Positions 3,611 through 62,038 of a stretch of 64,000 nt of DNA are shown piece by piece. Under the pieces are notes generated by a model. The model ran no database searches, was not told where the DNA came from, and saw nothing but the letters and a program-made list of their open reading frames with translations. Source of the DNA: Chiloscyllium plagiosum. Lineage: Eukaryota. The stretch covers positions 8,816,066 through 8,880,065 of the forward strand of contig NC_057719.1 in NCBI RefSeq assembly GCF_004010195.1, given 5' to 3'. The position numbers and the translations under genes are program-made. Position 1 is the stretch's first letter. Each line of letters opens with the position of its first letter.

Positions 3611-3638
3611 CTGAAGAAAGGCTTATGCCTGAAACATC
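3611..3638 (+). ncRNA. Minimal hammerhead ribozyme motif (PLE family A)
   Basis: CUGAAGA-A-AGGC-UUAU-GCCU-GAAA-CAUC: core plus 4-bp stem II. Confidence 0.7.
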
Positions 3639-3894
3639 GATTCTCCTGCTCCTCGGATGCTACCTAGCCTGCTGTGTTTTTCCAGTACCACATTTTTCAG
3701 CTCTGGTCTCCAGCATCTGCAGTCCTCACTTTCTCTTGTCACAAATGGCAGCCAAGCATAATTGAGGAATATCAGTTCAGCCATGAACTCATGAACGGTG
3801 CAGCAGACTTGATGAGCTGAATGACCCTACTTCTACTCTGAATGGTATGGGTCCACCGAACTTGCTGCTAGACTTTCCTTTACAGGAAGAGAGA

Positions 3895-4122
3895 TCAGAT
3901 TAGATTCCCTACAGTATGGAAACAGTATAAATCCACATCGACCCTCCAAAGAGTAACTCACCAGACCCATTCCCCTACCCTATATTTACCCCTGACTTAA
4001 CAACTTAGCATGGCCAATTCACCTGACCTGCACATCTTTGGATTGTGGGAGGAAACCGGAGCACCCGGGTCCCTAGTGCTGTGAGGCAGCAGTGCTAACC
4101 ACTGAGCCAGCATACCACCCAA
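3895..4122 (-). mobile_element. HE1 SINE, internally deleted
   Basis: AGATTAGATTCCCTACAG tail and V-domain CATGGCCAATTCACCTGACCTGCACATC. Confidence 0.85.
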
Positions 4123-4155
4123 AGGATTTAAGAGGAAAGGATTTGCATTTCCTCT

Positions 4156-4418
4156 GGGCGGCACGGTGGCATAGTGACTAGCATTGCTGCCTCACAGCAC
4201 CAGAAACCCAGGTTCAATTCCCACCTCAGGTGACTCTCTGTGTGGAGTTTGCACATTCTCCCCGTGTCTACGTGGGTTTCCTCCCACAATCCAAAAATGT
4301 GCAGGTCAGGTGGATTGGTCACGCTAAATTGCCCATAGTGTTAGGGGAATGAGTCTGGGTGGGTAGGTGTGGACTTGTTGGGCTGAAGGGCTTGTTTCCA
4401 CACTGTAAGTAATCTAAT
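4156..4418 (+). mobile_element. HE1 SINE inserted into the tail of a SacSINE1-like element
   Basis: GGGCGGCACGGTGG head, box B GGTTCAATTCC, TAATCTAA tail. Confidence 0.9.
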
Positions 4419-4420
4419 TC

Positions 4421-4822
4421 TATAGCTCCTTCCAAGGGCCCACAGTGTTTTGCAACCAAGGAAGTATATTTGAAGTGCAGGCGGGGTTAGAACGCTGGCT
4501 GCCAATTGCACAGCAAGCTCCCACAAACACCGATGCGATAACGATTGGATAATCTGCTTTTGCGGTGCTGACTGAATTTTGGCCTTACCACCCAGGGTAG
4601 CTCTCCTTTGAAACAGTGACTGCAGGATGTTCAACCATAAGGGCAGGCAGGGCCCCAGCTTACCATCGCATCAGAAAGACTGCAACCCTTTAACGGTGCA
4701 ACATTCCGTCAGTAGTGGCACCGGAATGCCAGCTTTTGACTGTTATGTTCAGGCCCTAGTGTGGTGGTTGAACCCACAGGGCTCAGACACACAGGAGGAC
4801 ATGTTAAACACTGAGTCAAGCT
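4421..4822 (-). mobile_element. SacSINE1/DeuSINE-like ancient SINE
   Basis: Reverse complement contains TGTTTGTGGGAGCTTGCTGTGCAATTGGCAGCC and a tRNA-like head GCTTGACTCAGTG...GGTTCAACC. Confidence 0.7.
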
Positions 4823-4869
4823 CATACCATACTGGGACGAATGCACTCACACAGTATGAGGCCAGGAAG

Positions 4870-5400
4870 GGTGAATGGTATTATTGGTGCACCGTTAATC
4901 TAGATAACCCAGGTAATGTTCTGGGGACCTGGGTTCAAATCCTGCTACGGTGGAATTTGATATTATAGTAAATAAAATCTGGAATTAAGAGTCTAACTAT
5001 GGATGTATGACCAAATCCATTGCTGATTGGTGGAAAAATTCACTGATGTCGTCTACTGCCATCCTCACCTGGCCTGAGACAAAAATAACTGCAGATGCTG
5101 GAATCCAAAGTAGGCAGGCAGGAGGCCAGAAGAACACAGCAAGCCAGGCAGCATCAGGAGTTGGAGAAGTTGATGTTTCGGGTGTAACCCTTCTTCAGGT
5201 TACACCCGAAACGTTGACTTCTCCACCTCCTGATGCTGTCTGGTTTGGTGTGTTCTTCCAGCCTCCTGCCTGTCTATCCTTAGCTGGTCTGGCCAACATG
5301 TGACTCCAGACCCACAGCAATGTGGTTGACGCTTAACTGCCCTCTGGGCAATAAATGCTGGCCGAGTTAGCAACACACACATATCTTGTGAATGAATTAA
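4870..5400 (+). mobile_element. SINE family B interrupted by a fold-back PLE derivative
   Basis: Head at 4870-5060, resumes at 5276 with GGCCAACATGTGACTCCAGACCCACAGCAATG. Confidence 0.75.
5077..5275. mobile_element. Fold-back PLE derivative with hammerhead motif (family A variant)
   Basis: Inverted arms. Minus-strand CUGAAGA-A-GGGU-UAC-ACCC-GAAA-CAUC. Flanking repeats 5061-5076/5276-5291. Confidence 0.8.
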
Positions 5401-5594
5401 AACATAAGAAGCAGGTACACAGTACGGAAGGTAAAGTAGGTGTGCTGAATGCAGAGTTGCATGCAAGGTACACTTTAAAGGACACATTCTTTGCTAAAAT
5501 GTGGGCTCAATGCGTTTTGAAAGTGTGGCTTCCAAATTTCCAGAGCTCCAGCTGTGAAACTGCTTAATATGTAAGCTGTGCCTTATCCCACTTG

Positions 5595-6062
5595 CAGTCT
5601 GAATGCACTCAACATGGATGTCGCTGGTTGGGCCAGAATTTATTACCTGTCCCTAGTTGCCCCTTGTGAAGGTGGTGGTGAGCTGCCTTCTCGAACCGCT
5701 GCAGTCCAACTGCTGTGGGTTGTCCCACACTGCATTAGGGAGGGAATTCCAAGATTTGGATCCATTGACAGTGAAGAAACGGCGATATATTACCAAGTCA
5801 GAATGGTGAGTGGCTTGGAGGGAAAATTGCAAGTGGTGGCGTTCCCATGTATCTGCTGCCCTTGTCCTTATAGGTGGAAGTGGCTGTGGGTTTGGAAGGT
5901 GCTGCCTAAGGATCTTTGGTGAATTTCTGCAGTGCGTTTTGCAGTTAGTACACACTGTTGCGACTGAGTGGTGGAGGCAGCGGATACTTGTGGATGTTAT
6001 GTCAATCAGGCAGGCTGCTTTGTCCTGGATAGTGTCAAGCTTTTCGAGTGTGGTTGGAACTA
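5595..6062 (-). mobile_element. CR1-like LINE family 2, ORF2 C-terminus and 3' tail
   Basis: PTTLEKLDTIQDKAACLI...FFTVNGSKSWNSLP; tail shared with SINE family B. Confidence 0.8.
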
Positions 6063-6729
6063 CACCCGACAACCAATTGTCCATTCACCACTGCCTCCCC
6101 CCTCCACCATCACTACCCTCATCCCCACCTGCCTCCCCAAGACTTGCGTCTCCTTGACACTGAACATCCGCCTTTGCTGGGCTGATTCCTAGCTTCCCGA
6201 TCATTCCTTGTGCATCTGAGTGTCAGCTGCAGCAGCGACTCACCGAATCCATGGAAATGAGGTGCTACGTGAGCTACACCTCATCCTGAGGGTGCAGGGA
6301 CTATCCTGTACCTGCCAGAATTTCACAGCTCCTACCTGTAAGCTCACTGTCTAGGCATTGTGTAACGAGGCTTTTTCAAATGCTCAGTGACCTTATCAAA
6401 GAGTAATACCATCAAGATTACAATGAAAAGTCAAGCATGAAACAGTGGCTCTATCGAACACAGCCAGTGCTGCCTTTTATGTAACCCTCCCCTCTCCTGC
6501 TTTCTTCTGAAAGTATGATGTAATCCGAAGCCAGAAGGGCAGCAGAAGTACATGGTGACAAGCCCAGCTTCGAGTTCAGTAAACAAAAGATTTTAGGTCT
6601 TACACTCCATGTTCAATTGAATACGATGGATCTTTCTGGTTGAATCTGAAGCTGGTTGAAGGAACAGGAGGAAGCCATTCATCCCTTTGAGAGGGACTGA
6701 TCTACGTCTAAATTCACATCTTGGGAAGG

Positions 6730-7012
6730 AACATAGGGAATAGGAGAAGGAGTCGATCATTCGGCCCTTGATCTGCCATTCAACATGATCACGGCTGATC
6801 TTCTACCTCATTTACACCCTTATCCCTCCTTAATATTGTTAATATCTAAAATTCCATTGATCTCTGTCTTGAGGATACTCAATGATTAGGTTTCCACAAC
6901 TCTGCGGCAAAGAAGTCCAAAGACTCACCCCACTCTGAGTGAAGAAATTGCTCTTCAACTCATTTCTAAATGGTCTACACTTCTTCTGAGATTGCGTCCC
7001 TGGTTCTAAATA
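6730..7012 (-). mobile_element. CR1 LINE 3' fragment
   Basis: Encodes FRNELKSNFFTQSGVSLWTSLP, followed by the CR1 3' UTR. Confidence 0.75.
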
Positions 7013-7549
7013 CCGTGGATAACTACCTCCCCCACTCCCTCCCTCACCCCGACCACCATCCCTCAAACCTCCCCCCCCACAAACAGCCAACACCGTCCAG
7101 AACAAAGCAATTCGCTGATTTGCACCCTATCCACCATGTTAGGCATTTCATTTCTCCATCACCAGCACACAGCCGTGATAGTGTGCACCACCTAAAACTG
7201 TTCACTCGGTACCAGCTCTCCAACATAATAGTGCCTTCCAAACCTGTAGCCTCTACCAAGAGGGACAAGGTGAACAGAATGTATGGGAATACCACCAGTG
7301 CCAAAAACCTCCCTCAAGTCACGCACCAACCCAATCCACGGGTCCAACTCCATCTGAACGTTTTACCAAGGATATTCCTCCACCACTTTTACCCAAGTCA
7401 TGCTTGAGATTTCCAATCTCTACAATGTTTGAAATTCTCACTCTTTTGCTCACATCTCTAGATTGCCTCAAACCTGTCTAACCTCTACAATCTCTAACAG
7501 TTCCACAACCCTATGGGATTGCTGCATCCCTCCAAACTTGGCATCCAGA

Positions 7550-7845
7550 TGATGGCCGAATGGCATAATCACTGGACATTAATCTAGAGACCCAGGTAAT
7601 GTTCTAGACAGCTGGATTTGAATCCTGATACTTGAATTTAAAATAAAAATGGAAGTTAGAGTTTCATTTTGACCATGAAATCATTGTTAGGAAACTCTAT
7701 CTGGTTGATGAATGTCCTTAATGGGCCTACATGTGACTCCAGCCCCACAGCAATGTGGTTAACTCATAGCTGTCCTCTGGGGAGTTAGGGATGGGCAATA
7801 TATGCTTGCTTAGCCAGCGATATCCACAACCTCTGAATAAAAAAG
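7550..7845 (+). mobile_element. SINE family B
   Basis: GGCCTACATGTGACTCCAG core and TAGGGATGGGCAATA tail. Confidence 0.75.
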
Positions 7846-7954
7846 ACCTCATTCCTGAACCAGAATCTTTATCAATTCTACCTGCACTGTACCACCATTC
7901 AATGGATTGCATAATCTCACCATTTTATCTTCCATTGAGTCTAACATTGCACTT

Positions 7955-8527
7955 AGAATATAGAACCTAGAACAGTACCGAACAGGAATGGTCCCTTCGG
8001 CCCACGATGTTCTGCTAAATATGACACCAAATTAAACTAATCCATTCTGCCTGTTCTCCATTCCTTGCATATTCATGTGCTTATCTAAAAGTCCCTTAAA
8101 AGTCCCCAGTCACTGGCAGTGCCACTATTTGTGGTCACCACCTTTATCTATTCCAAGAAGCGATCTTATGTGCCTTCACCATTCCCCCTGGCAGCACACT
8201 CCAGACTCTTATCACTCTCTGTGTAAAAAGACCTGCCCCTCATATCTCCTTTGAACTTTTCCCTCTCTCACCTTAAATGCAGACCCCCTAGTTTTAGATA
8301 TTTCAACTCTGAGAAAGAGATTCTGACCGTCAACCCTATCTGTGCATCTTATAATTTTATAGATGCCTATCAAGTCTCCCCTCAGTCTCTGCTGCTCCAG
8401 AGAAAACAACCTGAGTTTTTCTTGCCTCTCCTTATAGCTCATACCTTCTGATCCAGGCAGTATCCTGGTAAACCTCTTATGCACCCTCTCCAAAGCCTTT
8501 GTGTAGTGTGGCGACCAGAATTGAACT
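7955..8527 (-). mobile_element. CR1/HER1-related LINE 3' fragment
   Basis: LERVHKRFTRILPG...LFSLEQQRLRGDLI..YKI. Confidence 0.85.
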
Positions 8528-9819
8528 CTATGGGTGGCCGAAGGTAAGCCTTATGGCATTTTTCTGCTATTAAATTTCACCTGGTACTGTTGTGCCCAGT
8601 TACAGTGTTACAAAGGTCATACTGGCCTTGGTTATATTATGTGTGTTTCAGCAGACGAACTATGAGCGAGTTTAGCCAGCCAGTGAAACTTGCACTTTAT
8701 GACAGAGAACAGCCGATCCAATTTGAAAACTCTTAGAGGTCTCTTAGATTGGACTCATTCATCCTCAGCTGGGGAGAAGCCCTGGTTCCTTCAGCTCATG
8801 TTTTTTTTAGGGCCTGCCTTCAGGAGTGCAAGTTCCGAAAGATCAATAGAGTGAGCGCATCTTGCAATTACTTGCTCAGCCATTCTCCAGGCTGGAAGTG
8901 AAGTCTGGCCTTCTTTAAAGGGACCAGATAATCAGCCTCAAGAGCTATCCATCATCTGACATCTGGTAATGGATCCCATCAAAACAGACTCATTTATTTT
9001 TTTTGTTAACCCGCATCGATAGATTGCATATCAAGGCCAATCTATTTGCAGCGTTGCCTTGGAAACTATATTCCTCACTCGCTCTGAAGTGATATAGAGC
9101 ACACACAGAGGCTGAAAGTGATTCTTCCTCCTCTGGATTTGGAATGTTGTCCTTTTGCCATGCTCCCTAGTCACTGTCGGTGCCACCATTATTGGTTGCC
9201 ACCTTTATTTATTCGATACAGCACACTGGCTTCTCAGCTCACTCTGGAGCGACAAAAGTGAGTTTTCGCCATAAAGGCGGACAGCCCAAAAGGAGGCCAT
9301 TTGGCCCACCCAACGTGTGTGAGTTCTTTCAAGTAGTCATGCACTTTTTCCTCTAATAGGAGATAAGATGCAAATTGTTGACATTGTGCCTTCCATGCTG
9401 GATTTGTGAATATGCCTTTAGATAAGCCCGTGAATATGCAACGAATGGAGGGATAAGGACAAAGGACAGGGAGAAGGGTTTAGTTTAATTTGGCGTCATG
9501 TTCAGCACATCATTGTGGGCTGAAGGACCCATTCCTGTGCTGTACTGCTCTATATTCTACGTTTTAAGAGCAATGTTAGATAAAATGGCAGATCTGAAAA
9601 TGGGCAAGAAATGCAGCCTTGCTTGCAACAGCATTGCTGACAGGACAAATCACAAAAAACTGGAACTCAATTATAGGCTCAAACAGCACAAAGGGAGGAA
9701 CTTATTTGGTCCATTTTATCTATACCAGCTCTTCAAAACAACTATTCAATTGACATCACTCTTCTGCATTTTCCCCATAGCCCTGCAAGCATTTCCCCTT
9801 CACATTGGGTGGTTTTGCT

Positions 9820-13875: not shown

Positions 13876-13877
13876 CA

Positions 13878-14110
13878 AGAAAGTGAGCACTACAGATGCT
13901 GGAGATCAGAGTTGAAGGGTGTGGTGCTGGAAAAGCACAGCCGGTCAGGCAGCATATGAGGAGCAGGAGTATTGACGTTTTGGGATAATGAAGGGCTTAT
14001 GCCTGAAACATCAATTCTCCTGCTCCTCGGATGCTGCCTGACCGGCTGTGCTTTTCCAGCACCACACTCTTGACTCTGATCTCCAGCATCTGCAGTGCTC
14101 ACTTTCTCCT
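13878..14110. mobile_element. Fold-back PLE derivative (family A), both arms complete
   Basis: 13878-13985 is the inverted repeat of about 14000-14110; central ATGAAGGGCTTATGCCTGAAACATC. Confidence 0.85.
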
Positions 14111-17068: not shown

Positions 17069-17079
17069 CTCAGTAATCC

Positions 17080-22655: not shown

Positions 22656-23433
22656 TGTTGAGACAGCATTATTTGCATAGCAACTTTGAAAATAAAATCC
22701 TCAAAGCCAGTGGACATGAAGTCCATGCCCCATCAGAGAGCGTCAACTCAGAACATTCAGAGGCCTAGTGCTGGATCTCACTCAATGCTGACAGGTCAGT
22801 CGTCAACTTTATCGGGATTGGAGAGTAATGCAGGATGGATTATCAGGCCACGGAGGGGAGGCTGGGAGCTTGCTTGTTAAATAAATAACCTTGTGGGGTA
22901 GTTGGTAGCGCCCCCTGTCTCCTGGGGAGATTCAAGTCCCACTTTAGGACTTGGTGACCATGGAGAGTGCAGCCATTCAGCTTGAGGATCAAGACCATCA
23001 GAAATAGGAACAGGAGTAAGCCATTCAGCGCCTCCAGCCTGTTCCACCATTCAATAAAATCATGGCTGATTTGATGTTCCTCATGCCCATCTAGAGTTCT
23101 AATTTTCTTTTTAATTTAAGTTCAATATTCTCAAAAGATGGGAAACTCTACTAATGTATGCCAATGTGTAGTTAAAGCTGTTCATCATTGGGTCAACAGA
23201 ACTGAACAATTATTCTCAATACTTTTATGGCTCAATGGTATATTTGGGAAACATAAGTAGGCTTTATAGGAAATAGACTGGTACAAATATTCAGATACAT
23301 TGTTAACAGAATGTGTCTTTGTTTGTCCAACAGAGAACGTTGCATTGACAAAACAGCAAGCTGCCTCACCCAAGGATGGAAGTTAGTTACAAAAAGAAAT
23401 ACTTCAACTATAGACTAAACATTTTAGCAGGCA

Positions 23434-23577
23434 GAAGTGGGTACTGCAGGTGTTGGAGATTAGAGTCAAGATTAGAGTGGTGCTGGAAAAGCACAGCAGG
23501 TCAGGCAGCATCCGAGGAGCAGGAAAATCGACGTTTCGGGCAAAAGCCCTTCACCAGGAATGCTCAATCTTGACTCG
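23434..23577 (-). mobile_element. PLE derivative family A with hammerhead and 17-bp flanking repeats
   Basis: Minus CUGGUGA-A-GGGC-UUUU-GCCC-GAAACGUC; AAACATTTTAGCA(G/A)GCA at 23417 and 23578. Confidence 0.85.
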
Positions 23578-24129: not shown

Positions 24130-24732
24130 TGGGGTGGTGGTTTTGTCACTGGGCTAATAATCCAGGGCCCTAGTGGTCTGTGAACATGGGTTTTAATTCC
24201 ATCACCACCCATGGTCAAATCTGAAACCACTAAGAAAATTCTGGAATAAAATGGCAACCACGTAGCCACAGTCAATTATCGTTAAAAACCCATTCAGTTC
24301 ATTCCTGTCCTTATCTGGCCCAGCTTACAAGTCACTCCAAATGGACTGGTTGACCACTCCAAGACTGAAAACACCTCTTGGCCTTGCATTCTCTTAGATC
24401 ACTTCATCTTGAACACTAACTCATGGATGTGAAATGGAAACCAAAAATGCTGGAGAAACTCAGCAGGTCCGGCAGCATCTGAGTTAAGGATTCGAAGCCA
24501 GTGACCCTTTGTCAGAACTGGACTTGAAATGTTAACTCTCCTTCCCTCTCCACAGGTGCTGCCAAACCTGCTGAGTTTCTCCAACACTTTGTTTCAGATT
24601 TTCAGCATCTGCAATTCTTCGTTTTATCTCATGGATATGAAATGTGGTTAACTCAAAACAGCCTCTCGGCAATTAGTGATGGGCAATAAATGCTGGCCTA
24701 GCCAGAGACACTCTTATCCCATGAATAAATTA
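24130..24732 (+). mobile_element. SINE family B, degenerate, with nested fold-back element
   Basis: Head at 24130-24210; tail GGCAATTAGTGATGGGCAATAAATGCTGGCC. Confidence 0.6.
24437..24627. mobile_element. Fold-back PLE derivative family B
   Basis: Inverted arms (TGCTGGAGAAACTCAGCAGG / CCTGCTGAGTTTCTCCA); flanking repeats CTCATGGAT(G/A)TGAAATG at 24420 and 24628. Confidence 0.8.
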
Positions 24733-27189: not shown

Positions 27190-27426
27190 GATCAGCACAG
27201 TGGGTCAGGCAGCATCTGAGGAGCAGAAGAGTTGATGTTTCGGGCATAAGCCCTTCATCAGGAATGTGCAGGGGGAAGGGTGATGAGAGATAAATGGAGG
27301 GGTGGGTTGGTAGCTGGGAAGATGATCGGATGGATGCGGGTGGGAGGGGTGACAGTGATAGGTCAATGGGGAGGGTCAAACAGACAAGTGGGAAGGAAGA
27401 TGGACAGGTAGGGCAGGTCAAGAGGG
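27190..27426 (-). mobile_element. PLE 3' region with intact hammerhead core (27234-27261)
   Basis: Minus CUGAUGA-A-GGGC-UUAU-GCCC-GAAA-CAUC; runs into a 17-N gap (27427-27443). Confidence 0.8.
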
Positions 27427-27443
27427 NNNNNNNNNNNNNNNNN

Positions 27444-28359: not shown

Positions 28360-28532
28360 CAGACAGTAAGGAGAGTCAATGGATGTGAAGTTGGAAAAGC
28401 ACAGCGGGTCAGGCAGCATCAGAAGGTCAACGTTTCATCCCGAAACCCTTTGGCAGTCCTGAAGCATTGACTTTCCTGCTCCTCGGATGCTGTCTGACTT
28501 GCTGTGCTTTCTAGCTTCACATCTATTGGCTC
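28360..28532. mobile_element. Fold-back PLE derivative family A, degenerate
   Basis: Inverted arms; flanking repeats ACACATCAGA(C/T)ATG at 28346 and 28533. Confidence 0.8.
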
Positions 28533-29208: not shown

Positions 29209-29750
29209 TTGTGGTGGCTGTTTTCGACAGTTATCTGAATGGTTTTGTGATATGATCTAAGTTTCAAATCTGCATAGTGCCCACTCTTGTTTGCCCTGCC
29301 CGAACACATTGCCCTTTTCCTGCCAACCTAGAAGGTCACTCAAACTTTGCCCTTGGTCTCAAGGGTGTTCATTGCCTTTTGACACCAACAACATGAATTT
29401 GGTTAACACTTTCCACACAAGAAAACACACCAGCAGCTTTCTCGCAGGAGAGATTATGAAACAAACTACAACTCTGAGTCACCCAAGGTGTGATTTGGAG
29501 AGGTGACTGATTGCTCACTGATACGGTCTTTAATTTCTGACGTGAACATAGCAGAATTAGACTGGTCTGCCACCATTGATCTGATTGCATGTTGACTCCC
29601 ACATTCTTACCAAATGCCCCTCATAAAAACATCGCTTTCGAGAAGGTGGTTGTGAGCTGTGTTCTGGAACTGTTGTAGTCCTTGTGATGTAGGGATGCCC
29701 ACTGTCTTATAAGAACATAGGAGCAGAATTAGGTCATTCAGCCCATCTAG

Positions 29751-29865
29751 CAGAAAGTGAGAGCTGCAGATGCTGGAGATCAGAGTTGAGAGTGTGTGAT
29801 GCTGGAAAAGCACAACAGGTCGGGCAGCAATCGAGGAGCAGGAGAATCGACGTTTCGGGCAGGAG
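29751..29865 (-). mobile_element. Single-arm PLE derivative family A inserted in a CR1 tail
   Basis: Truncated within stem II (GCCCGAAACGTC retained); flanking repeats ATTC(A/G)GCCCATCTAG at 29736 and 29866. Confidence 0.8.
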
Positions 29866-34159: not shown

Positions 34160-34376
34160 GGGAGAAAGTGAGGACAGCAGATGCTGGAGGTGAGAGTCGA
34201 GGAGTGTGATGCTCGAAAAGCCAGCAGGTCAAGCAGCATCCGAGGAGCAGGAAAATTGATGTTTCGAGCATAAGGTCTTCATCAGGAATGATGGTATTAT
34301 GCTTGAAACGTCGATTCTCCTGCTCATTGGATGCTACCTGACTGGCTGTGCTTTTCCAGCACCACACTCTTCGATT
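34160..34376. mobile_element. Fold-back PLE derivative family A
   Basis: Inverted arms meeting at CATCAGGAATGATG; flanking repeats CTTAA(G/A)CAAGG at 34149 and 34377. Confidence 0.85.
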
Positions 34377-39119: not shown

Positions 39120-39255
39120 CCTTCCTGGTGAAGGGCTTATGCCCAAAATGTCGACACTCCTGTTCCTTGGATGCTGCCTGACCTGCTGTGCTTTTCCAGC
39201 ACTGCACTTTTCAACTCTGACTCTCCAGCATCTGCACTCCTCACTTTCTCCTCCC
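39120..39255 (+). mobile_element. Single-arm PLE derivative family A, mutated hammerhead
   Basis: CCTGGTGAAGGGCTTATGCCCAAAATGTCGAC...CCAGCATCTGCACTCCTCACTTTCTCC. Confidence 0.8.
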
Positions 39256-41747: not shown

Positions 41748-42128
41748 AATCTAACCCTAACCTTAACTCGAACCTTAATCCGAATCCTAACTCGATCCTA
41801 AACCCAAACCTTAATCTTAATTCTAACCTTAGCTCTAACCCTAACTCTAACCTTAATCCTAATTCTACCCCTAACCTTAACCCTGACCTTAATTCTACCT
41901 CTATCCTTAACCCTAACTCTAACCTGAATCCTAATCCTACTCTAACCTTAACCCTAACCCTAATCTTAACTCTAACCTTAACTCTAACCCTAACTCTAAC
42001 CTGAATCCTAATCCTAACTCTAACCTTAACCCTAACCCTAATCCTATTTCTAACCTTAACTCTAACTCTAACTCTAACCTTAACCTTAACCCTAACCCTA
42101 ATGCTAATTTTAACCCTAACCTTAACCA
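41748..42128. repeat. Interstitial telomere-like hexamer array (CCCTAA/CCTTAA/CTCTAA variants)
   Basis: About 380 bp of period-6 repeats directly visible. Confidence 0.9.
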
Positions 42129-42199: not shown

Positions 42200-42760
42200 C
42201 CTAATAGCCAGGGAGTCCAGAACTTGTGGTCACAATGCAAACATGGAGAGTTAGACTGAGCTGAGGAGAATTTCTTCATCCAGACAGTGCTGAGCCCATG
42301 GAATTCACTGCCACAGGAAACAATTGAGGCTGAAATATTAAATATTTGCAAGAATGAGTTAGAGATAGTTTTTAGGGGCTAAAGGCATGAAAGAGAGAGA
42401 ATGGAACAGGCTACTGAGTCTGAAGATCAGCTGTGATCATACTGAATGAGGAGGAGATCAGCTATGACCTTACAATGGGGGGGGGGAGGTCAGCCATGAT
42501 CACACTAATGGGGAGGGGGGTGGAGATCAGCGATGATCATACTGAATGGGGAAGATCAGCGATGATCATACTGAATGGGAGGGAGATCAGCTATGATCAT
42601 ACTGAAAGGGGGGAAGATCAGCTATGATCATACCGAATGGGGGAGAGATCAGCTATGATCATACTGAATGGGGAGAGATCAGCTATGATCATACCGAATG
42701 GGGGGAAGCAAGTTCAAAGGGCCAAAGGGGCTGCTCTTGCTCCTATTTTCTATGTTTCAA
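42200..42760 (+). mobile_element. CR1 3' fragment with its UTR hairpin expanded into 9 tandem copies (42425-42706)
   Basis: GATCAGCTATGATCATACTGAATGGGG repeated, then the normal tail AAGGGCCAA...TGCTCCTATTTTCTATG. Confidence 0.85.
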
Positions 42761-45695: not shown

Positions 45696-46377
45696 GGAGA
45701 AAGTGAGGACTGCAGATGGTGGAGATAAGATTCGAGAGTGTGGCGCTGGAAAAGCACAGAAGGTCAGGCAGCATCCGAGGAGCAGAAGAATCGACGTTTA
45801 AGGCATAAGCCCTTCATCAGGTATGAGACTTGTGGGCCAGGCCATTGAGAGATAAATGGGAGGTTGGGGGGTGGTGGGACTGGGGGGAAGGTAAATGGGA
45901 ATGCAATAGGTAGATGAAGGTGGCGGGTGGGAATCGTGATAGGTCGGAGAGGAGGGTGGAGTGTATAGATGGGGTAGGTGATGGACAAGTCAGGAGGGCA
46001 GTGCTGAGGTGGAGGCTTGGGACTGGGACAATGTGGGGGGGAGGGGAAATGAGGAAACTGTTGAAATCCATTTTGATCCCGTATGGTTGCAGGGTCCCAA
46101 GGCAGAATATGAGGCGCTCTTCCTCCAGGCATGAGCGGTAAGGGTTTGGCAGTGGAGGAGGTCCAGGACCAAAAGTATGGTGCTGGAAAAGTGCAGCAGG
46201 TCAGGCAGCATCCGAGGAACAGAAGAATTGATGTTTTGGGCATAGGAACTCCTGATGAAGGGCTCATGCTCAAAACGTCGACTCTCCTGCTTCTCCGATG
46301 CTGCCTGACCTGCTGTGCTTTTCCAGCGCCACATTTTTTGACTCTGATATCCAGCATCTGCAGTCCTCACTTTCTCC
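45696..46377. mobile_element. Composite PLE: minus-strand 3' end with GIY-YIG C-terminus plus a fold-back repeat
   Basis: Minus 46055-46170 encodes VLDLLHCQT../LEEERLIFCLGTLQPYGIKMDFNSF; hammerhead motifs at about 45793-45820 (-) and 46252-46279 (+). Confidence 0.85.
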
Positions 46378-47588: not shown

Positions 47589-47684
47589 TCTGGATTAGTG
47601 GTGCTGGAAGAGCACAGCAGTTCAGGCAGCATCCAAGGAGCTTCGAAATCGACGTTTCAGGCAAAGGCCCTTCATTTACCTCCT
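47589..47684 (-). mobile_element. Short PLE derivative family A variant
   Basis: Minus AUGAAGGGCCUUUGCCUGAAACGUC; perfect 15-bp flanking repeat TGATGCACATCAGTT (47574 and 47685). Confidence 0.8.
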
Positions 47685-49036: not shown

Positions 49037-49268
49037 TGTTGCACCCATTCTTTTACTCTATGGTATATAAAGATTTCAGCACAAGTTAAGATTCTGTTGC
49101 CTTTTTATTTGTAAGGGGAGCAGTTCCCGACTTCAACTCGATGAAATTATTTAAAAACGCACAGCTGTTCCTGGCTGATGTGCACCAGGAATTAAATGAA
49201 GAAGTGTTCACATTGACTTGTGTGTGCGTGATGGAGCATAGGCTTCCCTAGGATTTTACCTTGAGGAG

Positions 49269-49428
49269 AGAAATGGGGACTACAGATGCTAGAGATCAAA
49301 GTTGGAAAGTGTGGTGCTAGAGAACCACAGCAGGTCAGGCAGCATCTGGGGAGCCGGAGTGTCAACCTTTCAGGCATAAGCCCTTCATCAGGAATGAATG
49401 CTGTGCTTTTCCAGCGCCACGTTTTGAC
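49269..49428. mobile_element. Fold-back PLE derivative family A
   Basis: Minus CUGAUGA-A-GGGC-UUAU-GCCU-GAAA; flanking repeats TTTACCTT(G/T)A(G/A)GAG at 49255 and 49429. Confidence 0.8.
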
Positions 49429-49974: not shown

Positions 49975-50535
49975 ACATTTACCTCATTAGCTGGTTTGCA
50001 GTGCAAAGTGATGCCAACAATGAGGGTTCAATTCCCACAGCAACTAAGGTTACCATGAAGGACTCTAAGATGTTGTGAAACTTGAAAGGGTTCAGAAAAG
50101 ATTTACAAGGATGTTGCCAGGGTTGGAGGATTTGTGATGCCAACAATGAGGGTTCAATTCCCACAGCAACTAAGGTTACCAAAAGGACTCTAAGATGTTG
50201 TGAAACTTGAAAGGGTTCAGAAAAGATTTACAAGGATGTTGCCAGGGTTGGAGAATTTGAGCTATGGGGAGGGTCTGAACAGGCTGGGACAGTTTTCCCT
50301 GGGATGTCGGAGGCTGAGGGGTGACCTTATAGAGGTTTACAAAATTATGAGGGGCATGGATAGGATAAATAGACAAAGTCTTTTCCCTGGGGTTGGTGCT
50401 GTACATCTCTATGACTCTATGACTATGACTCTCCCCTCGCCTAAGATTTGGCAATCCTCGGGTTACACCACCAGTTGTCTTTCTCTCCATTGAGATAGCA
50501 GCCCTATGGTCCAGTTGGACAGTGGTGATTTTACC
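49975..50535 (+). mobile_element. SINE family C disrupted by a HER1 fragment, with a 126-bp tandem duplication across the junction
   Basis: 50008-50133 repeated at 50134-50258; SINE resumes at GACTCTCCCCTCGCC (about 50427). Confidence 0.85.
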
Positions 50536-50619: not shown

Positions 50620-50815
50620 GTAAATCAGAAACAAAAACTAAAATTGCTGGAAAAGCTCAGCAGGTCTGGCAGCATCTGTGGAGAGAAATCAGAGCTCATG
50701 TTTTGGATTCCTTCCTCAGAACCTCAGAGGAAAGGACACTCAACCCAAGCATTAGCTCTGATTTCTCTCCACAGGTGCTGCCAGACCTGCTGAGCTTTTC
50801 CAGCAATTGTGGTTT
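50620..50815. mobile_element. Fold-back PLE derivative family B, degenerate
   Basis: TTGCTGGAAAAGCTCAGCAGGTCTGGCAGCA inverted with TGCTGCCAGACCTGCTGAGCTTTTCCAGCAA. Confidence 0.75.
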
Positions 50816-53370: not shown

Positions 53371-54464
53371 TTCATTACTGTATTGCAGCGTTCCCTGTGA
53401 GCTACATTGTTGCATAACTGCTCAGAGACTCTGTGCATGCCATGCTAAGGTGGGTGCCATACACATTAACTTCTGGTGCATGGAATGCACAGTTGGGGGG
53501 GGGGGGGGATAGCTGCATTATCAGAGTCACGGACATCACCCCAAGTTCACCGTGACAGGTGGATGTACAAGGTTCATGAAAAGGGCAGGAATTTTTCTCA
53601 GCTTTTCAGTCAAATGTTCCTTTCTCAAGCAGGTACTGATGGAGGGATAAATGTTGGCCAGTCACTGTAAGCAATTTTTATGGGGATGTGAAATGCACGC
53701 AAAGAGTCTGTAATGTTTAGAATATGGAAGGAGCTCATTTGCCCATTGTGCTTCTGCCAGTTTCCAAGAGGGTGTTTAAACTAACCCCACTTTTCAGTCC
53801 TGTAGGTTAAGTGTCTTCAAGTGTATATCTAAGTACATCTTCTACATGTTGAAGTTTTCTGCCTTGACATTCTTTCCAGCACCACACTTTTCGACTCGGA
53901 TCTCCAGCATCTGCAGTCCTCACTTACTCTTTCAAGAAGCTCAAAAAAGGCTCAATACAAAAGGTATTCAATGCAAATATCTCTCTCCCCAACGATAAGC
54001 AACCTCCATACAAGTAACAGTCAAGTAGAGGCTTGATACAGTGCTGAAATACTGTCAGCGGGAACTGCTTTGCAACGAAAAAACTTGGAGAATGAAAATA
54101 TGGCTCATTTTGTCCTCGTGGATGACTCATTTTGACTGCCAATGTACTCATCAAATGTTTAGCACAAACGTAGTTGTGTAAAAGTTGACCTTTTGAACCA
54201 AAAGTTTCAAGCAATAAATTGGGGCATTATTGTTTTAATAATGCCGAGAAATTGAAATCCATGTCGGATATTTGGAACTACCGAGCCGCCAATGTTGACA
54301 CCTCATGCTGGTTGCTAGCCATGGTCCTGAATTCAACAGACCTCGGCTGCCTCCGATCTGATGTTTGAGAAGACCAATTTTGAACCAGATTCACTGGACT
54401 GTCCACAGTAATCCAGTACCCAAAACTAATACAAAGTACAAGAAAAATGAAGGACTTCTTGGGT

Positions 54465-56212
54465 GAAATGTCAGGGCAAGTCGTTGGAGGGAATCCTGAG
54501 GGGCAGGATTTACATGTATTTGGAAAGGGAAAGGCTGATTAGGGATAGTCAATATGGCTTGTGGGAAATCATGCCTCAGTAACTTGATTGAGTTTTTTGA
54601 AGAAGTAACAAAGAGGATTGATGAGGGCAGAGTGGACATAATCTTACACTTAATTAGATTACTTACAGCGTGGAAACAGGCCCTTTGGCCCACACCGACC
54701 CATATATTTACCCCTTCACCTAACACTACCGGCAATTTAGCTTGGCCAATTCACCTAACCTGCACTTTTTTGGACTGTGGGAGGAAACCGGAGCAAACCC
54801 ACGCAGACACGGGAAGAATGTGCAAATTCCACACGGTCGCCTGAGGCGGGAATTGAACCCGGGTCCCTAGCACTGGGAGGCAGCGGTGCTAACCACTGTG
54901 CCACCGTGCCGCCCATGCTGTCAGTAAGGCATTCAACCAGGATCCCCGTGGGAGATGGTTAGCAAGGTTAGATCTCATTTGTATACAGAACTGGCTCAAA
55001 GGTAGAAGACACAGGGTGGTAGTCAAGTGTTGCTTTTCAGACTGGAGGCCTGTGACCAGTGGAGTGCCACAAGGATCGGTGTTGGGCCCACTACTCTTCA
55101 TCATTTATATAAATGATTTGAATGTGAACATTGGAGGCATAGTTAGTAAGTTTGCAAATGGCACCAAAATTGGAGGTGTATGGACAGCAAAGAAGGTTAC
55201 CTCAGATTACAATGGGATTTTGATCAGATGGGCCAATGGGCTGAGGAGTGGCAGGTGGAGTTTAATTTAAATAAAGGCGAACTGCTGCATTTTGGAAAAG
55301 CAAATCTTAGCCGGACTTATACACTTAATGGTAAGATCCGAGCGAGTGTTCCTGAACAAAGAGACCTTGGAGTGCAGGTTCATAGCTCTTTGGAAGTAGA
55401 GTCGAAGATAGATAGGATAGTGAAGAAGGCGTTTGGTATGCTTTCCTTTATTGGTCAGAGTATTGAGTACAGGAGTTGGGAAGGATAGTGAAGAAGGCGT
55501 TTGGTATTATTTATTGGTCAGAGTATTGAGTACAGGAGTTGGGAGGTCACGTTGCAGTTGGTTAGGCCACTTTTGGAATATTGCATGTGGTTCTGTTCTC
55601 CTTCCTATGGGTGGGATGTTGTGAAACTTGAAAGGGTTCAGAAAAGATTTACAAGGATGTTACCAGGAGTGGAGGATTTGAGCTATAGGGAGAGGCTGAA
55701 CAGGCTGGGGTTGGTTTCCCTGGAGCATCGGAGGCTGAGGGGTGACCTTATGGAGGTTTACAAAATTATGAGGGGCATGGACAGGATAAATGGACAAAGT
55801 CTTTTCCCTGGGGTGGGGAAGTCCAGAACTAGAGTGCATAGGTTTAGGGTTAGAGAGGAAAGATATAAAATGGACCTAAGGGACAACTTTTTCATACAAG
55901 GGTGGTGTGTGTAAGGAATCTGATGAAGGTCTTTTACCCGAAACGTCGATTTTCCTGCTCCTCAGATGCTGCCTGACCTGCTGTGCTTTTCCAGCACCAC
56001 TCTAATCTAGACTCTCAATCATTTACTGGCTGCTTCTCTCAACACAGGTCTTGATCAAGAAATCTGTAGACATGAGTACAAGAGTGCAGAACAAATTATT
56101 CTCTCCTAGTTTTCTGCTCTCCCTCTGTAATGGGACTAGATTAGGTTAGGATATCTGGACGGGTTGGGTGGAAGGGTCTGTTTCCATGCTGTACATCTCT
56201 TTGACTCTCTGA
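54465..56212 (+). mobile_element. HER1 LINE RT region with nested HE1 (-, 54652-54914), internal duplication and templated insertion
   Basis: GKSCLSNLIEFFEEVT...VTSGVPQGSVLGPLLFIIYINDL...SKFANGTK...RLRGDLMEVYKI. Confidence 0.92.
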
Positions 56213-56302
56213 TTTAATTTATTCACAAGATTGATTATGACATGGGCCTGTACAGCGTGTTCCTATTCTTATCAATTAGCATTGAAACGCTGATAAACGA
56301 CT

Positions 56303-56405: not shown

Positions 56406-56545
56406 TGTTCTAATAATTTTATGATAAAATGAAATTAGCATCTGGGCGGCTTATTGCAATCCGATGGGATTGGGCATGGGGAAATGAAAATGGACAAGTG
56501 GTTAAATGGAATTCAGACTCACACATCTTGCTCAATCATTACTGG

Positions 56546-56770
56546 GTGAAAGTGAGGACTGCAGATGCTGGAGGTCAGAGTCTAGATTAGAGTGGTGCTG
56601 GAAAAGCACAGCAGGCCAAGCAGCATCCAAGGAGCAGGAAAATCAACGTTTCAGACAAAAGCCCTTCATCAGGAATCTGATGAAGGTCTTTTACCCGAAA
56701 CGTCGATTTTCCTGCTCCTCAGATGCTGCCTGATCTGCTGTGCTTTTACATCATCACTCTAATCTAGACT
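56546..56770. mobile_element. Fold-back PLE derivative family A with two back-to-back hammerhead motifs
   Basis: ...CTTCATCAG-GAAT-CTGATGAAG... centre; flanking repeats CTCAATCAT(T)TACTGG at 56531 and 56771. Confidence 0.88.
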
Positions 56771-56940
56771 CTCAATCATTTACTGGCTGCTCCTCTCAAC
56801 ACAGATCTTGATCAAGAAATCTGTAGACATGAGTACAAGAGTGCAGAACAAATTATTCTCTCCTAGTTTTCTGCTCTCCCTCTGTCATATCGAGGAAGAG
56901 GCTTGGCTCAGTATGCTGTTGTGTTGATCTATAAACAATT

Positions 56941-57020
56941 GACAGATACATAGAGAGACAGACAGACAGAGAGACAGACAGACAGAGACAGACAGACAGA
57001 CAGAGACAGACAGACAGCAA
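56941..57020. repeat. (GACA/GAGA)n microsatellite
   Basis: Directly visible. Confidence 0.9.
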
Positions 57021-58139
57021 ACAGAAAGACTGCTCACAAATTAGTGTTGAACCTTGACGTTTTGACAGAGAACAATATGAAGACATCATTGCAGATCTTT
57101 TGAATGATAATAATTGCCAGAAACTTGAAAACCTGACCATAAGGGGTTTAGTTAAGGTACATTATGTTACCTGTAAGATGGTTTTCTTATTGTGAATTGA
57201 AGGCAGTATTTCAAAACAGGTTCAGGCACAAATATCATTTCATGAGTCGTCACTCTAATGGTGTAGCATTCAGTACCAATACCCTTCGTAGTGATAGCAA
57301 GTGCCACCAACTTTATGTAGGACCAGAGAACTCCTCTGCTGTTGACCCTCCAGCTGGGTCAGCACGTGTCAGCTGGATGCTCAATACAGTCAAAGGCTAT
57401 TCCACTAAATTCTTTTCCCGAGCTCCTCCCACTGTCCAGCTAGGCAAGAGTTGGCTTTCCTCACTTCATTATGACTATATTCAAATCAAGAGACTGTACA
57501 TCATCTCTAATTCGGTCTAATTCTTGCCCCTGTCCTTTAAACACCTCAGCCACAGTCCACATTCTAGACAGTAAGTCTTGAAAATGGCCCAACGTTTGTA
57601 AATTGACAGGATACAAAAGAACAGTCCTCCCCATAAGAGCCAATCTTGATTAAAATATTTCTTCTCTACTTTATTTGTCATTGCAAAGATGAGACAGTTT
57701 TTCAGGGAACAAAGATCCAAATACATACTATCCTATATTCTCTTTTCATTCTTTGTTTTCCTGAAGGCGATGAAATCAAGATCAATCACTTAGTCCAATT
57801 CAGTGTTCCTCAGGATCCTAAACTTTCGCCTCGCTCATTTTCTCTCCCTACAATCCACAGACTAATGAGATACAGATTCAACCATTTCTAACCATTCATC
57901 TTTGAATCACCCCATTTTCTGACTTAATCTTTCAGCCATAAAGGTGTTCAATACCACAGGCCACTGTCCTTCAGCTGGGGATATCCCTGCTAATGTCATA
58001 TTCATGAAAAAGGTTTGAGCTCCCCCCAGTTTCTATAATAATTATATTATTAAGCAAGTCTGAATATATCTGTGGGACACCTTTCAATGTCATGGGTTTT
58101 TATTGTATCATGTACTATACGGTACAGCATTAGCCTTCA

Positions 58140-58540
58140 CATAGAATAGAAGCTCTACAATTCAGAAAGAGACCATTCAGCCCATTGAATCTGAACCGAC
58201 CCTCTGAAGAGCATCTCACTCAAACCTAGCCCTGACCCTATACCCAAATCCCTGCATTTACCATGGCCAATCCACCTAACTTGCCCACCCCTGAACACTA
58301 CAGACAATTTGACATGGCCAATCCACCTAGCCTGCATATTCGTGGACACCATGGGCAACTTAGCACGGCCAATCCACCCTAACCTGTGCATCTTTTGCCC
58401 ATAGGAGGAAACTGGAGCACCCGGAGGAAACCCACACAGACACAGGGATAACATGCAAACTCCACACAGTCGCCTGAGGTTGGATATTGAACCTGTGTTC
58501 CTGGTGCTATGAGACAACAGTGCAAACCACTGAGTCACCT
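58140..58540 (-). mobile_element. HE1 SINE with internally triplicated segment
   Basis: Three CA(T/C)GGCCAATCCACC units at about 58262, 58312 and 58364. Confidence 0.85.
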
Positions 58541-58769
58541 GCCATCCTTTTCATAGGGATGACAATGTCTTCTTTTCTTTTTGACAATGGATTCCAGCTA
58601 ATACTGATCCTGACTCACCATACAGCATGGGTCCCTACAATAGTGTTCAGGAACAGGAACCTCAGCTCATTTTCACAGCTTCCCCAGCACTCCACCTCAC
58701 TGCCTTGCCCAGCCTGGGTTACTGATCCCAGTTATAAGGAGAAGAATGTTTGCCTTTCACTTTACTTTA

Positions 58770-59020
58770 CTTTACTTTACACCTCATGAAGAGTTCCTCT
58801 GAAGTGTAGTCAATGATGTATGATATACACACAGTGAGCTCCAACAAACCAGAATGTGATAAAGGACCAAATAATCTGCTTTTAAAGATGTTGAGGTAGG
58901 GATAAATATTGGCCAGGGCACTGGGAGACTTTCCCTTACCCTCCTTGAAACGCTTCAACAGGATTTTTCTGTCAATTGATGCAGCAGACAGGACCTTGGT
59001 TTACATCTCATTTGAAAGGT
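58770..59020 (-). mobile_element. SacSINE1/DeuSINE-like fragment
   Basis: GGGATAAATATTGGCCAGG and ATAATCTG motifs; related remnants at 15830-15990, 39650-39960 and 49540-49730. Confidence 0.65.
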
Positions 59021-59419
59021 ACCTTCATCCTGAAACATTAGCTCTGTTTCTCTCTGAGCTGCTGAGTATTTCCAGCATTTCCTGTTGCTGGTTTATATTT
59101 CCAGCATCTGCAAAATTATGCTGTGGTTCTGTTCTTGTGATTCAGGTGGATCATTGCACCGAATGAAGTAGACTTCAGCTGCTGCGGTTCTAATCTCAGA
59201 GTCACGGACATCGACAGCGCAGAGAAAAGGCCAGTCATCCATCCCATCCACACCGGTCAAAAACAGCCACCAAACTAATCTAATCCCAATTCCCAGCTCT
59301 TGGCCCAGTACTCACTGACTCTCAATGCGCTTGGATCCGTCTGTACCTGGACTTAGGAATCAGATCTTTTCCTTCAAATCCATCGACCCTTTTGTCAACA
59401 ACTTTCCTGCTGTGTCCTC

Positions 59420-59660
59420 CCCCAAACATACCACCCTTTGTGACATCTACAATCCCCCATTCCCAGTGTCCTGTACATCCCCAAACATACCACCCTCTGT
59501 GATATCTACACTCCCCCATTCCTGGTGTCCTATACATCCCCAAACATACCACCTTTTGTGATACTTACAATCCCCCATCCCTGGTGTCCTATACATCCCC
59601 AAACATACCACCTTTTGTGATACCTACATTGCCCCAGTTCTGATGTCTTGCACATCCCCA
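59420..59660. repeat. Minisatellite, 59 bp x 4
   Basis: CCCCAAACATACCACC at 59420, 59479, 59538 and 59597. Confidence 0.9.
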
Positions 59661-60439
59661 GTTGAACTGCTCATCCATTAATAGTCGTGCATCAGCTGTA
59701 TGGGCCCCAAGATCTGAAACCGTCTCCCTGAATCTCTCCACCTCCCCCTCTTTATGTTGCTCCAAATCATCTACCCATCTGACTCAGATTCCGAGCACTC
59801 TTATTCATATTTCCTTCTCTGGGTGTCAATTTTGTTCTGATTATGTTCTCCTATGAACCACCGTTTGCTATGTCACTGTATGACAGTAAATGGAATCTGT
59901 TGATGATGATATAAGATGTCTCCGAAACACTGCACTGTTCCTATGAGTTCTTCCAATGAGGATGAAATGAACCAAGGAGACTTTTATCTTGACCTTATTT
60001 GACTTCTTCCAAGCTCTACTCACTGATATCAGTTTCCATTCACACTCAAACAAACTGTCAAGCGAGATGGCTTTTGTACAGTGGGCTCATGTCAATTAAG
60101 AGTCTGGGGACCAGAGCACAAACCACCAATACTTCTCCTCTCTTCTGACCCTGAATCAGGGTTAGGTTACATAAATGAATTGTTAATGGTCGCTCAGCCC
60201 GAGCAGACAGAATTGTCATTCGGTCTGTTTTTGTGGCTTCTGAAGATCGACCAGAATGTTACTGTTGGCTACAATTTTACAGAGACACTCTTTAAACTTC
60301 ATAAAAGGCATGAACTACGGTGGATTGATTATTACTATTCATAAACCATGGACCCTAACTGCTTTGCATGGCATGGAAACACACTCTTTATGTGAGTAAT
60401 GACCAAGTCATCACCATGATGCATGTTACAGAGCTGTAC

Positions 60440-60725
60440 TTTCAAACCCATGACCCCTTCCATCTGGAAGGACAAGGATGGCAGGTACATGGGGACACCA
60501 CTCCCTGCAGGTTCCTCTCTCAACCACTCACCATCCTGACACGGAAATATATCGGTATTCCTTCACTGGCTCAAAATCCTGGTTCTTTCTCCCTCAGGGC
60601 ATTGCGGGTCAACCCACAGCACATGGACTGCAGCGGTTCAAGAAGGCAGCTCACCATCTTCTCAAGGCCCACAAGAGACAGGCAGTAAATACTTGTCCAG
60701 TCAGAGACAGCTGCATAGCATGAAC
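60440..60725 (+). mobile_element. CR1-like family 2 3' fragment
   Basis: HHPDTEIYRYSFTGSKSW...GLQRFKKAAHHLLK. Confidence 0.8.
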
Positions 60726-61023
60726 AAGTTCAAAAATCTATGAGGCAAAATCAAATCCTGATGCTTACAGTCTTCTTTCAAACAAAGTCCAATGCTTTCC
60801 CTCAAAGTGGAGTTGAGGCCACAATTCGATCTTAATCAATGGCACAGCAGGCTAGAAGGGTTGAATGGCCAACTCCTGCTCCTAATTTTTTAAATATTTA
60901 CACAAGCACAGAAATAATTCATTGACTCATTAGGTAGATTGAGTTCTACGCTCAAAAGATGTAAGAAGGCTTGAAGTTTGCAGCCTGCTAGGATGAGAGA
61001 GCCATGCAAATAGATGAGGCCAT

Positions 61024-62038
61024 TGTCATGTCAGGAGTCTGCAGACCCCACCTTTCTATTGCTCTGTATTTTTGATTGTGGACTGAAATGGCCAAAAAAG
61101 GATTGCTTTAAACCCAAGGATTGTGGAAATAATTGCTGCGCTCTTAAAAAACAAGTTGCTGGAGCTTGTTGTGTTTACACTGGTCTTTGTTGAGTTAGTG
61201 GGGGAGGAGAGTTAAGTCAGAAAGTGAGATTCAGCCAGCAACGTGTTGCAGATTGGTTTGTGCAATTGTTACCAATTGTGGATACCAGGGTCATAAGCCT
61301 AACAACAACTCTATTTCCTGCATAGCTGAACTGTGTGTGAAAATAGCACAGTGGCAGAATGCTTCCAGACTGGAAAAAGCAAGGACTGTCTCTACACCTC
61401 TGCAGCAGTCAGGCAGCATCTGAGGAGCAGGAAAATCGACATTTCAGGCCGGAGCCCTTCATCAGGAATGAGCAAGGCTCCTGTTGTGCTTCTCCAGCAA
61501 CACACTCTCAATTCTGATGTCCAGCACCTGCAGATCTCACTGTCTTCTACACCTCTGCAGCCAAGTCACTCAAGCCTAAAGACAGTCAGCCATTTTCTTC
61601 TACCATTTTTTGTAAGCTGTTACCTCTAACCAGCGACTGTAAAACTGGACAATGAACATGTAAACTCCCCGTGTGTTCAACAAAGAACTAAAAGAACCTG
61701 GCAGGAAGGAGAAAAAAAAATCTCATCCTATTGAACCCTGTGAACTGGTGCTATTGAACTGTGAATTCTCAGTACTGTTTCCTTTCACCATGACACCCTT
61801 TTTTTTGTTTGTATGTGTGTGTAGAGTTTTAATGAGAGTTATATGTTGCTAGTTAATAGCTCTGTTTACCTTTGGTGAGAGTTAGTTCACTCGTTATGTG
61901 AAGAACACTGGTTGAGTGTTAATCTGGGTTGATTAGACAAGAAAACTGGGCTCTTTCAATACTTCGATTAAAGCATTAACTTTTGTGGCAATCCCAGGAC
62001 TAAGAGGTTTGCAAAGCAGTGCACTCTGGGTCACGACA
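61024..62038. mobile_element. Probable solo LTR with nested PLE derivative (61407-61545)
   Basis: TGTCATG...CACGACA inverted termini, no clear target-site duplication. The nested element has a perfect 16-bp repeat TCTACACCTCTGCAGC. Confidence 0.45.

Follow-up and report, generated by a model that had tools for sequence, protein, structure and literature searches.

A 64,000-nucleotide stretch of contig NC_057719.1 of Chiloscyllium plagiosum (genome 3.56 Gb), referred to throughout as the window, carries many short repeats with a motif like a minimal hammerhead ribozyme, and the question that it raises is what these short copies are and how they came to be inserted in such numbers. An earlier inspection of the letters alone (the sequence-only reading) had proposed a separate non-coding family, comparable to retrozymes and mobilised by a Penelope-like element (PLE). 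We have found that the motif lies in the terminal repeat of a PLE and that the short copies, here called stubs, mostly share a 5' boundary just before the ribozyme; they are probably complementary DNAs (cDNAs) that ran off the 5' end of messenger RNA (mRNA) made by the element itself. Positions in the repeat are numbered with 0 at the first C of CUGA (hammerhead C3), which puts the predicted cut between +27 and +28.

The motif and its parent element

Scanning the window with the motif gave 14 matches at up to 4 mismatches and still 14 at up to 7, against a mean of 0.03 at 6 mismatches in 30 dinucleotide-matched random sequences. The sequence-only reading had counted about 14 dispersed copies, and every coordinate that it named is among these. 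Its claim of a very high copy number holds genome-wide, where the pattern CTGANGA-N13-GAAACGTC has 118,554 exact matches, compared with 32 for the reversed control; twenty arbitrary 10-kb stretches (185,726 bases) contain 16 copies, 7 of them with the strict core, from which the total is extrapolated to roughly 0.3 million. Just one window copy, at 56645-56672 on the minus strand, is fully intact (all core bases, paired stem II, palindrome), the other 13 of the 14 are damaged, and the G-T pairs in stem II reflect CpG decay, as had been supposed. The copies at 55920 and 56677 have their flanks in common and represent one local duplication.

Judged by its sequence, the motif is the minimal hammerhead published for PLEs. 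The family of this motif, family A, has the core bases, an extra base after A9 (an A in 164 of 166 copies), the G10.1-C11.1 pair (138 copies, with a further 21 G-T) and a palindromic helix III without loop 3 (ACGT in 137). Three further hammerhead families, B, C and D, were found. Family B forms part of a set of 2,012 matches with a 12-base spacer that is mixed with deletion copies of A, and family C has 41,100 intact cores genome-wide. The families were compared by position (166, 12, 28 and 6 copies of A, B, C and D) and pairs were counted position by position; a MAFFT alignment of 16 copies shifted the family C core by one column and was not used for pair counts. The first stem II pair is G-C in all four families and the later pairs change together, the third being G-C or A-U and the fourth C-G, U-A, G-C or A-U. 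Helix I pairs also change together across families (C-G/A-U and U-A/A-U/C-G), and the helix III palindrome is ACGU in A, B and D and AGCU in C.

These paired changes lie between families A-D; stem II shows no covariation inside family A, where 10.1/11.1 is G-C in 146 of 181 copies, G-T in 28 and A-T in none, a count that left out the copy at 3611 for its N gap. As no A-T occurs at this pair within the family, AGGC/GCCU at 3611 is a single decayed copy. The other variant pair cited by the sequence-only reading, GGGU/ACCC at 5175-5198, belongs to family B, which is related but different. Five family-A subfamilies differ at none of the 8 stem II columns but at 2 of the 4 loop columns and at N7, and three CpGs within the motif are kept across all five. 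A Fisher test on variable columns (0/22 versus 22/66) was not used, because the search pattern itself had fixed 14 of the core columns and the subfamilies had been defined partly by downstream columns.

It is very improbable that the motif is a chance or dead look-alike rather than a hammerhead under selection. Apart from the damage to 13 of the 14 window copies, such a reading can point to the Rfam search that the sequence-only reading had recommended, whose 17 hits in the window at E ≤ 10 were mostly palindrome hairpin look-alikes and included no hammerhead, and to the folding of five natural copies, which gave stem II in 5/5 and helix I in 1/5, z-scores of 0.2 to -2.3 that do not speak for a strong global fold, and a lowest-energy monomer fold other than the hammerhead in most. 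Against it stand the core that is fixed across four families while paired bases change together, and the contrast between the unchanged stem II and varied loop and N7 columns of the five subfamilies, with their three retained CpGs. Minimal motifs described in the literature show weak cleavage, and this only in dimeric form (PMC4209133) or in the presence of the element's own protein (PMC11167929). The fixed core, extra base, loop-less palindrome and between-family changes thus favour the original identification of the motif as a predicted PLE minimal hammerhead.

Several features of the families were noted in passing. Family C (L197-L226) has a clear TATAAA and two 3' ends ~37 bases apart, and is preceded by endonuclease-like sequence with 28-42% identity to that of family A. 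Family D (window 63486-63519, minus strand, and L135, L141 and L146) has a 6-bp stem II and a TATAAAT ~50 bases upstream of the core. In subfamilies with a UAU or CAU loop, an AUG in loop II opens a frame of ~26 codons before the main ATG (L139, 2500-2580, minus strand), and other subfamilies have GUG or UUG in its place.

The copies are assigned to the terminal repeat of a PLE of the Neptune type, encoding reverse transcriptase (RT), a zinc finger and a GIY-YIG endonuclease. Two natural copies match RVT_1 (E = 1e-8, above the cut-off) and GIY-YIG (E = 3e-4, just under it), and natural long-frame copies contain DKG, YIDD and a CX4CX2C linker (residue 597), the RT and C-terminal GIY-YIG lying within one open reading frame (ORF) as in endonuclease-bearing PLEs. 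A CX2-5CxxC zinc-finger linker between RT and endonuclease marks Neptune and Nematis (PMC8557442); CX4CX2C fits this, the feature being common to Nematis. The window itself holds a 5'-truncated ORF piece (2584-3129, plus strand), which has 83,145 first-look candidates in the genome and corresponds at 82% identity to residues 394-575 of a longer natural RT and GIY-YIG copy. Since the catalytic YIDD is at residue 377, the piece starts downstream of it and is without the RT core, and a Pfam search of it found no family. A 434-base gap follows (3131-3564), then the terminal repeat of the same copy (3565-3735, plus strand; motif 3611-3638, 3' end at ~+125). The supposed RT-encoding PLE at 2584-3737 ending with the motif is thus upheld as a PLE ORF piece and a terminal-repeat motif; the RT core is absent and the gap lies between the two.

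In natural copies the motif is ~180 bases 3' of the ORF end on the same strand, and 26 of 80 long copies are linked to the ORF. Some copies extend past +125, and the continuation runs to an ATG near +162 and the N-terminal coding region; the same 130 bases therefore close one unit and open the next, as in the partial tandems of PLEs. Terminal repeat, partial tandems, inverted 5' copy and a one-sided tail of 30-40 bp, the architecture of a PLE, are all found here.

Where the copies begin and end

To map the ends, 222 copies were collected and 19 dropped for Ns or short flanks; the 203 usable copies include 101 stubs with a core (including three long copies, L067, L071 and L073), 80 long copies and 21 that start inside the core. 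Stubs agree with the long copies at 90, 81, 73 and 68 of 101 at -1, -2, -3 and -4, then drop to near background with 41 and 36 at -5 and -6 and beyond (background 0.27); for the long copies the figure is 71-79 of 80. Genome-wide, one exact core occurs in 40,338 copies, of which 24,047 have the bases -4 to -1 and 12,688 those at -8 to -5; allowing for mutation, somewhat over half of these have their end no more than seven bases from the core. In family B the three informative stubs begin at -3/-4, and of nine copies with hammerhead and 5' coding sequence seven start at -4 to +8. The 29 family C stubs fall to background after -8.

The boundary has the sequence YY-A-TTCC with the A at -4, which we take to fit the initiator consensus. 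A TTTAT word starts at -35 to -37 in 70 of 78 matches among the 80 long copies, 31-33 bases before -4, and in family C a TATAAA lies at -38 to -41 in 20 of 27 long copies, 30-33 bases upstream of -8. The A at -4 is likely to be the first base of the element mRNA and the point where helix I begins. A splice acceptor was considered as the cause of the boundary and rejected, since the junction lacks an AG in both family A and family C.

Few copies end at the ribozyme's own cut. Of 54,579 copies anchored at +29 to +53, 48,266 (88%) keep GAAA at +20 and so run past it, and 4 of 111 mapped 5' ends lie at +26 to +28, three of these from one duplicated locus, in a sample partly chosen on the motif. 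The templates would thus mostly have been uncleaved.

A boundary at this point might instead be a truncation hot spot, RT stalling just past the hammerhead at its structure or a bound protein, with -4 not being the RNA end. PLE insertions are mostly 5'-truncated (PMC8557442, PMC4209133), and in family A the boundary is the outer edge of helix I, frayed over several bases. In family C, however, where three pairs make up helix I, the boundary nevertheless falls at -8 and the TATAAA lies 30-33 bases upstream of it; moreover, once the 3' strand of helix I has been copied no helix should be left to block RT at -4, and 5' units with coding sequence stop at the same base. We consider stalling improbable.

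The 3' ends of stubs fall near +90 or +125, 35 bases apart, giving lengths of 95-130 bases. Target duplications of 8-16 bp flank 17 of 41 solo stubs, compared with 2 of 398 mismatched controls, and most head-to-head pairs have one of 8-17 bp; the stubs were thus inserted by PLE machinery, as the sequence-only reading supposed. Among 45 distinct head-to-head pairs, 37 have one arm ending at +90 and one at +125, 2 are long/long and 1 is short/short; the 37 of 40 classifiable pairs give a binomial p of 1e-8 against 0.5. Unpaired copies are 68 long-ended, 53 short-ended and 10 other (of 131). The same complementarity of 3' class is seen in nine of the ten long copies that show a short inverted arm.

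Independent arms would match half the time. For the inverted pairs alone a different origin can be considered, in which fold-back self-priming, either of the cDNA or on an antisense template, gives rise to the second arm and the endonuclease trims it at +90. Self-priming is how head-to-head junctions have been explained in print (PMC3846280), and endonuclease resolution has been invoked for the one-sided tail (PMC8557442); the arms of a pair also carry the same subfamily variants and many centres overlap as palindromes. Such an origin is nevertheless doubtful, because copies ending at +90 are common alone (53/131) and their fold-back should give +90/+90 or shorter pairs, of which 1 in 40 is seen. 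The best fit is a model in which both target ends prime, each at its own start site.

The evidence does not support a separate retrozyme-like family. Each of four subfamilies defined by coarse markers in the 203 copies has both stubs and long, partly ORF-linked copies, and none has variants restricted to short copies. No tandem head-to-tail arrays with a hammerhead per unit were found in the window, the direct pairs seen being partial tandems with coding sequence between them; stubs are solo or head to head, and their 5' ends lie before the ribozyme, so the unit is not one bounded by the cleavage site. A related alternative, that short non-coding RNAs, made by stubs or from the downstream promoter of long copies that are truncated, are copied in trans by the PLE protein, would accord with the fixed 5' end, the target duplications and the very high copy number, and transcription would be conceivable for at least 12,688 copies in which sequence upstream of the start is retained; retrozymes are, besides, proposed to derive from PLE terminal repeats (bioRxiv 2026.07.22.740005). 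The long copies in all four subfamilies, the lack of tandem stub arrays in the window and of 5' ends at the cut site, stubs without an upstream promoter-like word, and an RNA with coding sequence that starts at the same base make this unlikely, though short RNAs from promoters of truncated copies could feed some stubs. On different contigs, L032 and L054:498 have stubs with the same downstream flank, a family C copy, and a composite of the two families may have moved together at these loci.

Joins between units were examined in 20 loci chosen for a 5' coding piece. In 8 of these the piece, ending at a different point in each between +256 and +535, is joined directly to a stub starting at -3/-4; 5 join a copy with upstream repeat, 2 join a copy starting inside the unit and 5 are unclassified. 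Such joins are what a cDNA reaching the RNA end and continuing on another template would leave. Chimeras crossing over at the hammerhead between subfamilies, the expected outcome of strand transfer in trans, were also looked for, with no clear case among the long copies, a result that is uninformative.

Taken as run-off products of the mRNA, the stubs would arise in the following manner. A promoter lying in the upstream repeat would direct transcription from the A at -4, and the mRNA would open with the hammerhead as its first 32 bases. Staggered cutting by the endonuclease would give the duplications of 8-17 bp, and reverse transcription on the uncleaved RNA would be primed by each of the two DNA ends, at one of two internal sites. 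With sites near the mRNA 5' end, cDNAs of 95 and 130 bases would stop at the first base of the RNA and be joined head to head, or one arm would be lost; long copies would result when these sites are used in the downstream repeat of an RNA that has read through, or from a template jump off the -4 end. The hammerhead would be slow, dependent on dimers or protein and kept by selection in master elements, and would not cut most of the copied templates. More tentatively, PLEs in general may integrate by obligate twin priming, the two start sites of a protein dimer acting on one uncleaved, capped sense RNA, one for each cut target end. The stubs would then be strong-stop cDNAs, and jumps from the 5' end would build the partial tandems that restore the promoter. 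If true, twin priming would provide one rule for head-to-head palindromes, the one-sided tail and the renewal of pseudo long terminal repeats (pseudo-LTRs), with no antisense template.

A number of observations weigh against the run-off origin or the two-end priming. Most of the sampled copies lie within the first 3 Mb of a single contig, with a bias to intact cores, and in the twenty arbitrary 10-kb stretches 10 of 15 copies are long. The edge is frayed, 31 of 101 stubs having fewer than three matching bases (starts at -3 to 0). The upstream word of family A is only TATA-like and its conservation helped to call copies long. One arm is unclassifiable in 5 of the 45 pairs, and of the 53 long copies whose 5' end is visible, 43 showed no short inverted arm in the test. 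An added G at -5, a possible copied cap, is present in 13 of 47, not distinct from the flank. The promoter of the D. virilis Penelope is reported as internal and TATA-less (PMC2377424). Finally, raw reads of two sequencing runs and contigs of two were searched, and in a single-cell RNA run of a related organism neither the starts nor the ends of molecules piled up. In one of the raw runs 2,726 reads, from both strands, matched the repeat, and the 163 loose ends at -4 among them reflect genomic stubs inside host transcripts; the second gave 0 reads of the repeat.

Other copies and repeats in the window

The remaining copies in the window show most of these arrangements. Solo or nearly solo stubs lie at 39122-39252 (plus, ~-3 to +125), 23430-23577 (minus, -4/-5 to ~+125, with a short inverted remnant and a 13-bp target duplication), 49264-49425 (minus, -6 to +125, with an inverted remnant of +59 to +85) and 47589-47684 (minus, starting in the core and ending near +90, with a 15-bp duplication). 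At 61402-61548 a minus-strand stub of ~-6 to +64 has an inverted arm of +57 to +125 and a 16-bp duplication. Head-to-head pairs are found at 34161-34372 (arms -6 to +124 minus and +12 to ~+81 plus), at 46172-46377 (+13 to +85 minus and -2 to +124 plus), at 56545-56770 (-4 to +124 minus and 0 to +95 plus; duplication of at least 10 bp) and at 13878-14110 (+12 to +122 minus and +5 to +125 plus), the last having lost its 5' core and being one of the two long/long exceptions. The pair at 46172 abuts a long copy (45696-46170, minus) in which the endonuclease C-terminus (46036-46125) is followed by the terminal repeat with its motif at 45793-45820. Another copy with upstream terminal-repeat sequence, at 27194-27306 (minus; motif 27234-27261), continues towards an N run at 27427 and has its 3' end cut at +67. 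Family B is represented by a palindromic copy at 5129-5262, in which stem II GGGU/ACCC encloses a 3-base loop.

The copy at 55920-56000 (plus) is a duplicate of the 56677 arm with its flank; the local duplication as a whole covers 55920-56100 and 56677-56860, and a long interspersed nuclear element (LINE) fragment before the 55920 copy is presumably CR1-like. Decayed or core-less pieces of the same or related repeats lie at 24448-24613, 28383-28522, 50644-50806, 29749-29861 and 53873-53929, three of the five being inverted pairs. The window also contains ~63 degenerate CTAACC units resembling an interstitial telomeric repeat (41751-42127) and minisatellites of period 31 (42424-42703), 59 (59420-59636) and 125 (50008-50259).

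Comparison with known systems

The motif agrees with the PLE minimal hammerheads of PMC4209133 in its CUGANGA and GAAA core, its extra base between 9 and 10.1 with G10.1-C11.1, and its palindromic 15.2-16.2 without loop 3, and in both most copies are solo or in near opposite-strand pairs from truncated PLEs. The occurrence of such motifs genome-wide was thus already reported there; 4,000 and 9,000 of them were found remarkable, compared with the 118,554 and 41,100 intact cores counted here. In the parts consulted, that paper gives no map of 5' ends and proposes cleavage and circularisation, at odds with starts at -4 for most copies.

A PLE protein has been described that starts reverse transcription at two adjacent internal sites bounding the tail; it cleaves the two strands and extends each, works on uncleaved RNA and is a predicted dimer (PMC11167929). 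Its element, the Anolis Poseidon PAc, has a tail of 30-40 bases, against 35 here and ~37 in family C. PAc belongs to another clade and its ORF starts inside the hammerhead rather than ~162 bases behind it; as far as the available text goes, the two starts are not tied to the two DNA ends and no stubs at the transcription start are described.

Endonuclease-bearing PLEs (PMC3846280, PMC8557442) share with the present element an inverted 5'-truncated copy by the 5' end and a one-sided tail, both already described in those papers, as well as 8-10-bp target duplications, TATA- or initiator-like words in the repeat and partial tandems. There the head-to-head arrangement is attributed to antisense self-priming and the tail to endonuclease resolution, whereas the asymmetry of 37 in 40 pairs here points to two-end priming on sense RNA. 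The renewal of pseudo-LTRs and the origin of head-to-head palindromes are stated to be open in PMC2377424 and PMC3846280. The literature searched yielded nothing on shark PLE stubs, or on twin priming or strong-stop products in PLEs, and no report that ties stubs to the transcription start or head-to-head pairs to twin priming, although supplements and Arkhipova 2006, 2017 and Evgen'ev and Arkhipova 2005, outside the search, may describe part of this.

Animal non-LTR retrozymes (PMC7229834, bioRxiv 2026.07.22.740005) are likewise non-coding, hammerhead-bearing and related to PLE terminal repeats, and axolotl has up to 120,000 hammerhead motifs (same sources). They form head-to-tail arrays of ~170-400-base units with canonical type I hammerheads and are cut into circular RNAs (same sources), whereas the stubs are solo or head to head, carry minimal hammerheads and retain what lies ahead of the cut site.

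Since both the hammerhead and its connection with truncated PLEs are already published, the value of the present copies lies in the insertion record kept in their ends. The ends of more than 150,000 copies with intact cores (118,554 and 41,100) lead to the predictions that the RNA is capped at -4 or -8, that the template is uncleaved and that the two target strands do not share a start site. Minus-strand strong-stop DNA of retroviruses is a short first cDNA that ends at the RNA 5' end and is able to jump, and in LINE-1 twin priming two target ends prime one RNA. The stubs resemble both in the way they would work; they differ in that neither a transfer RNA primer nor poly(A) priming is involved and in that the short product is itself integrated.

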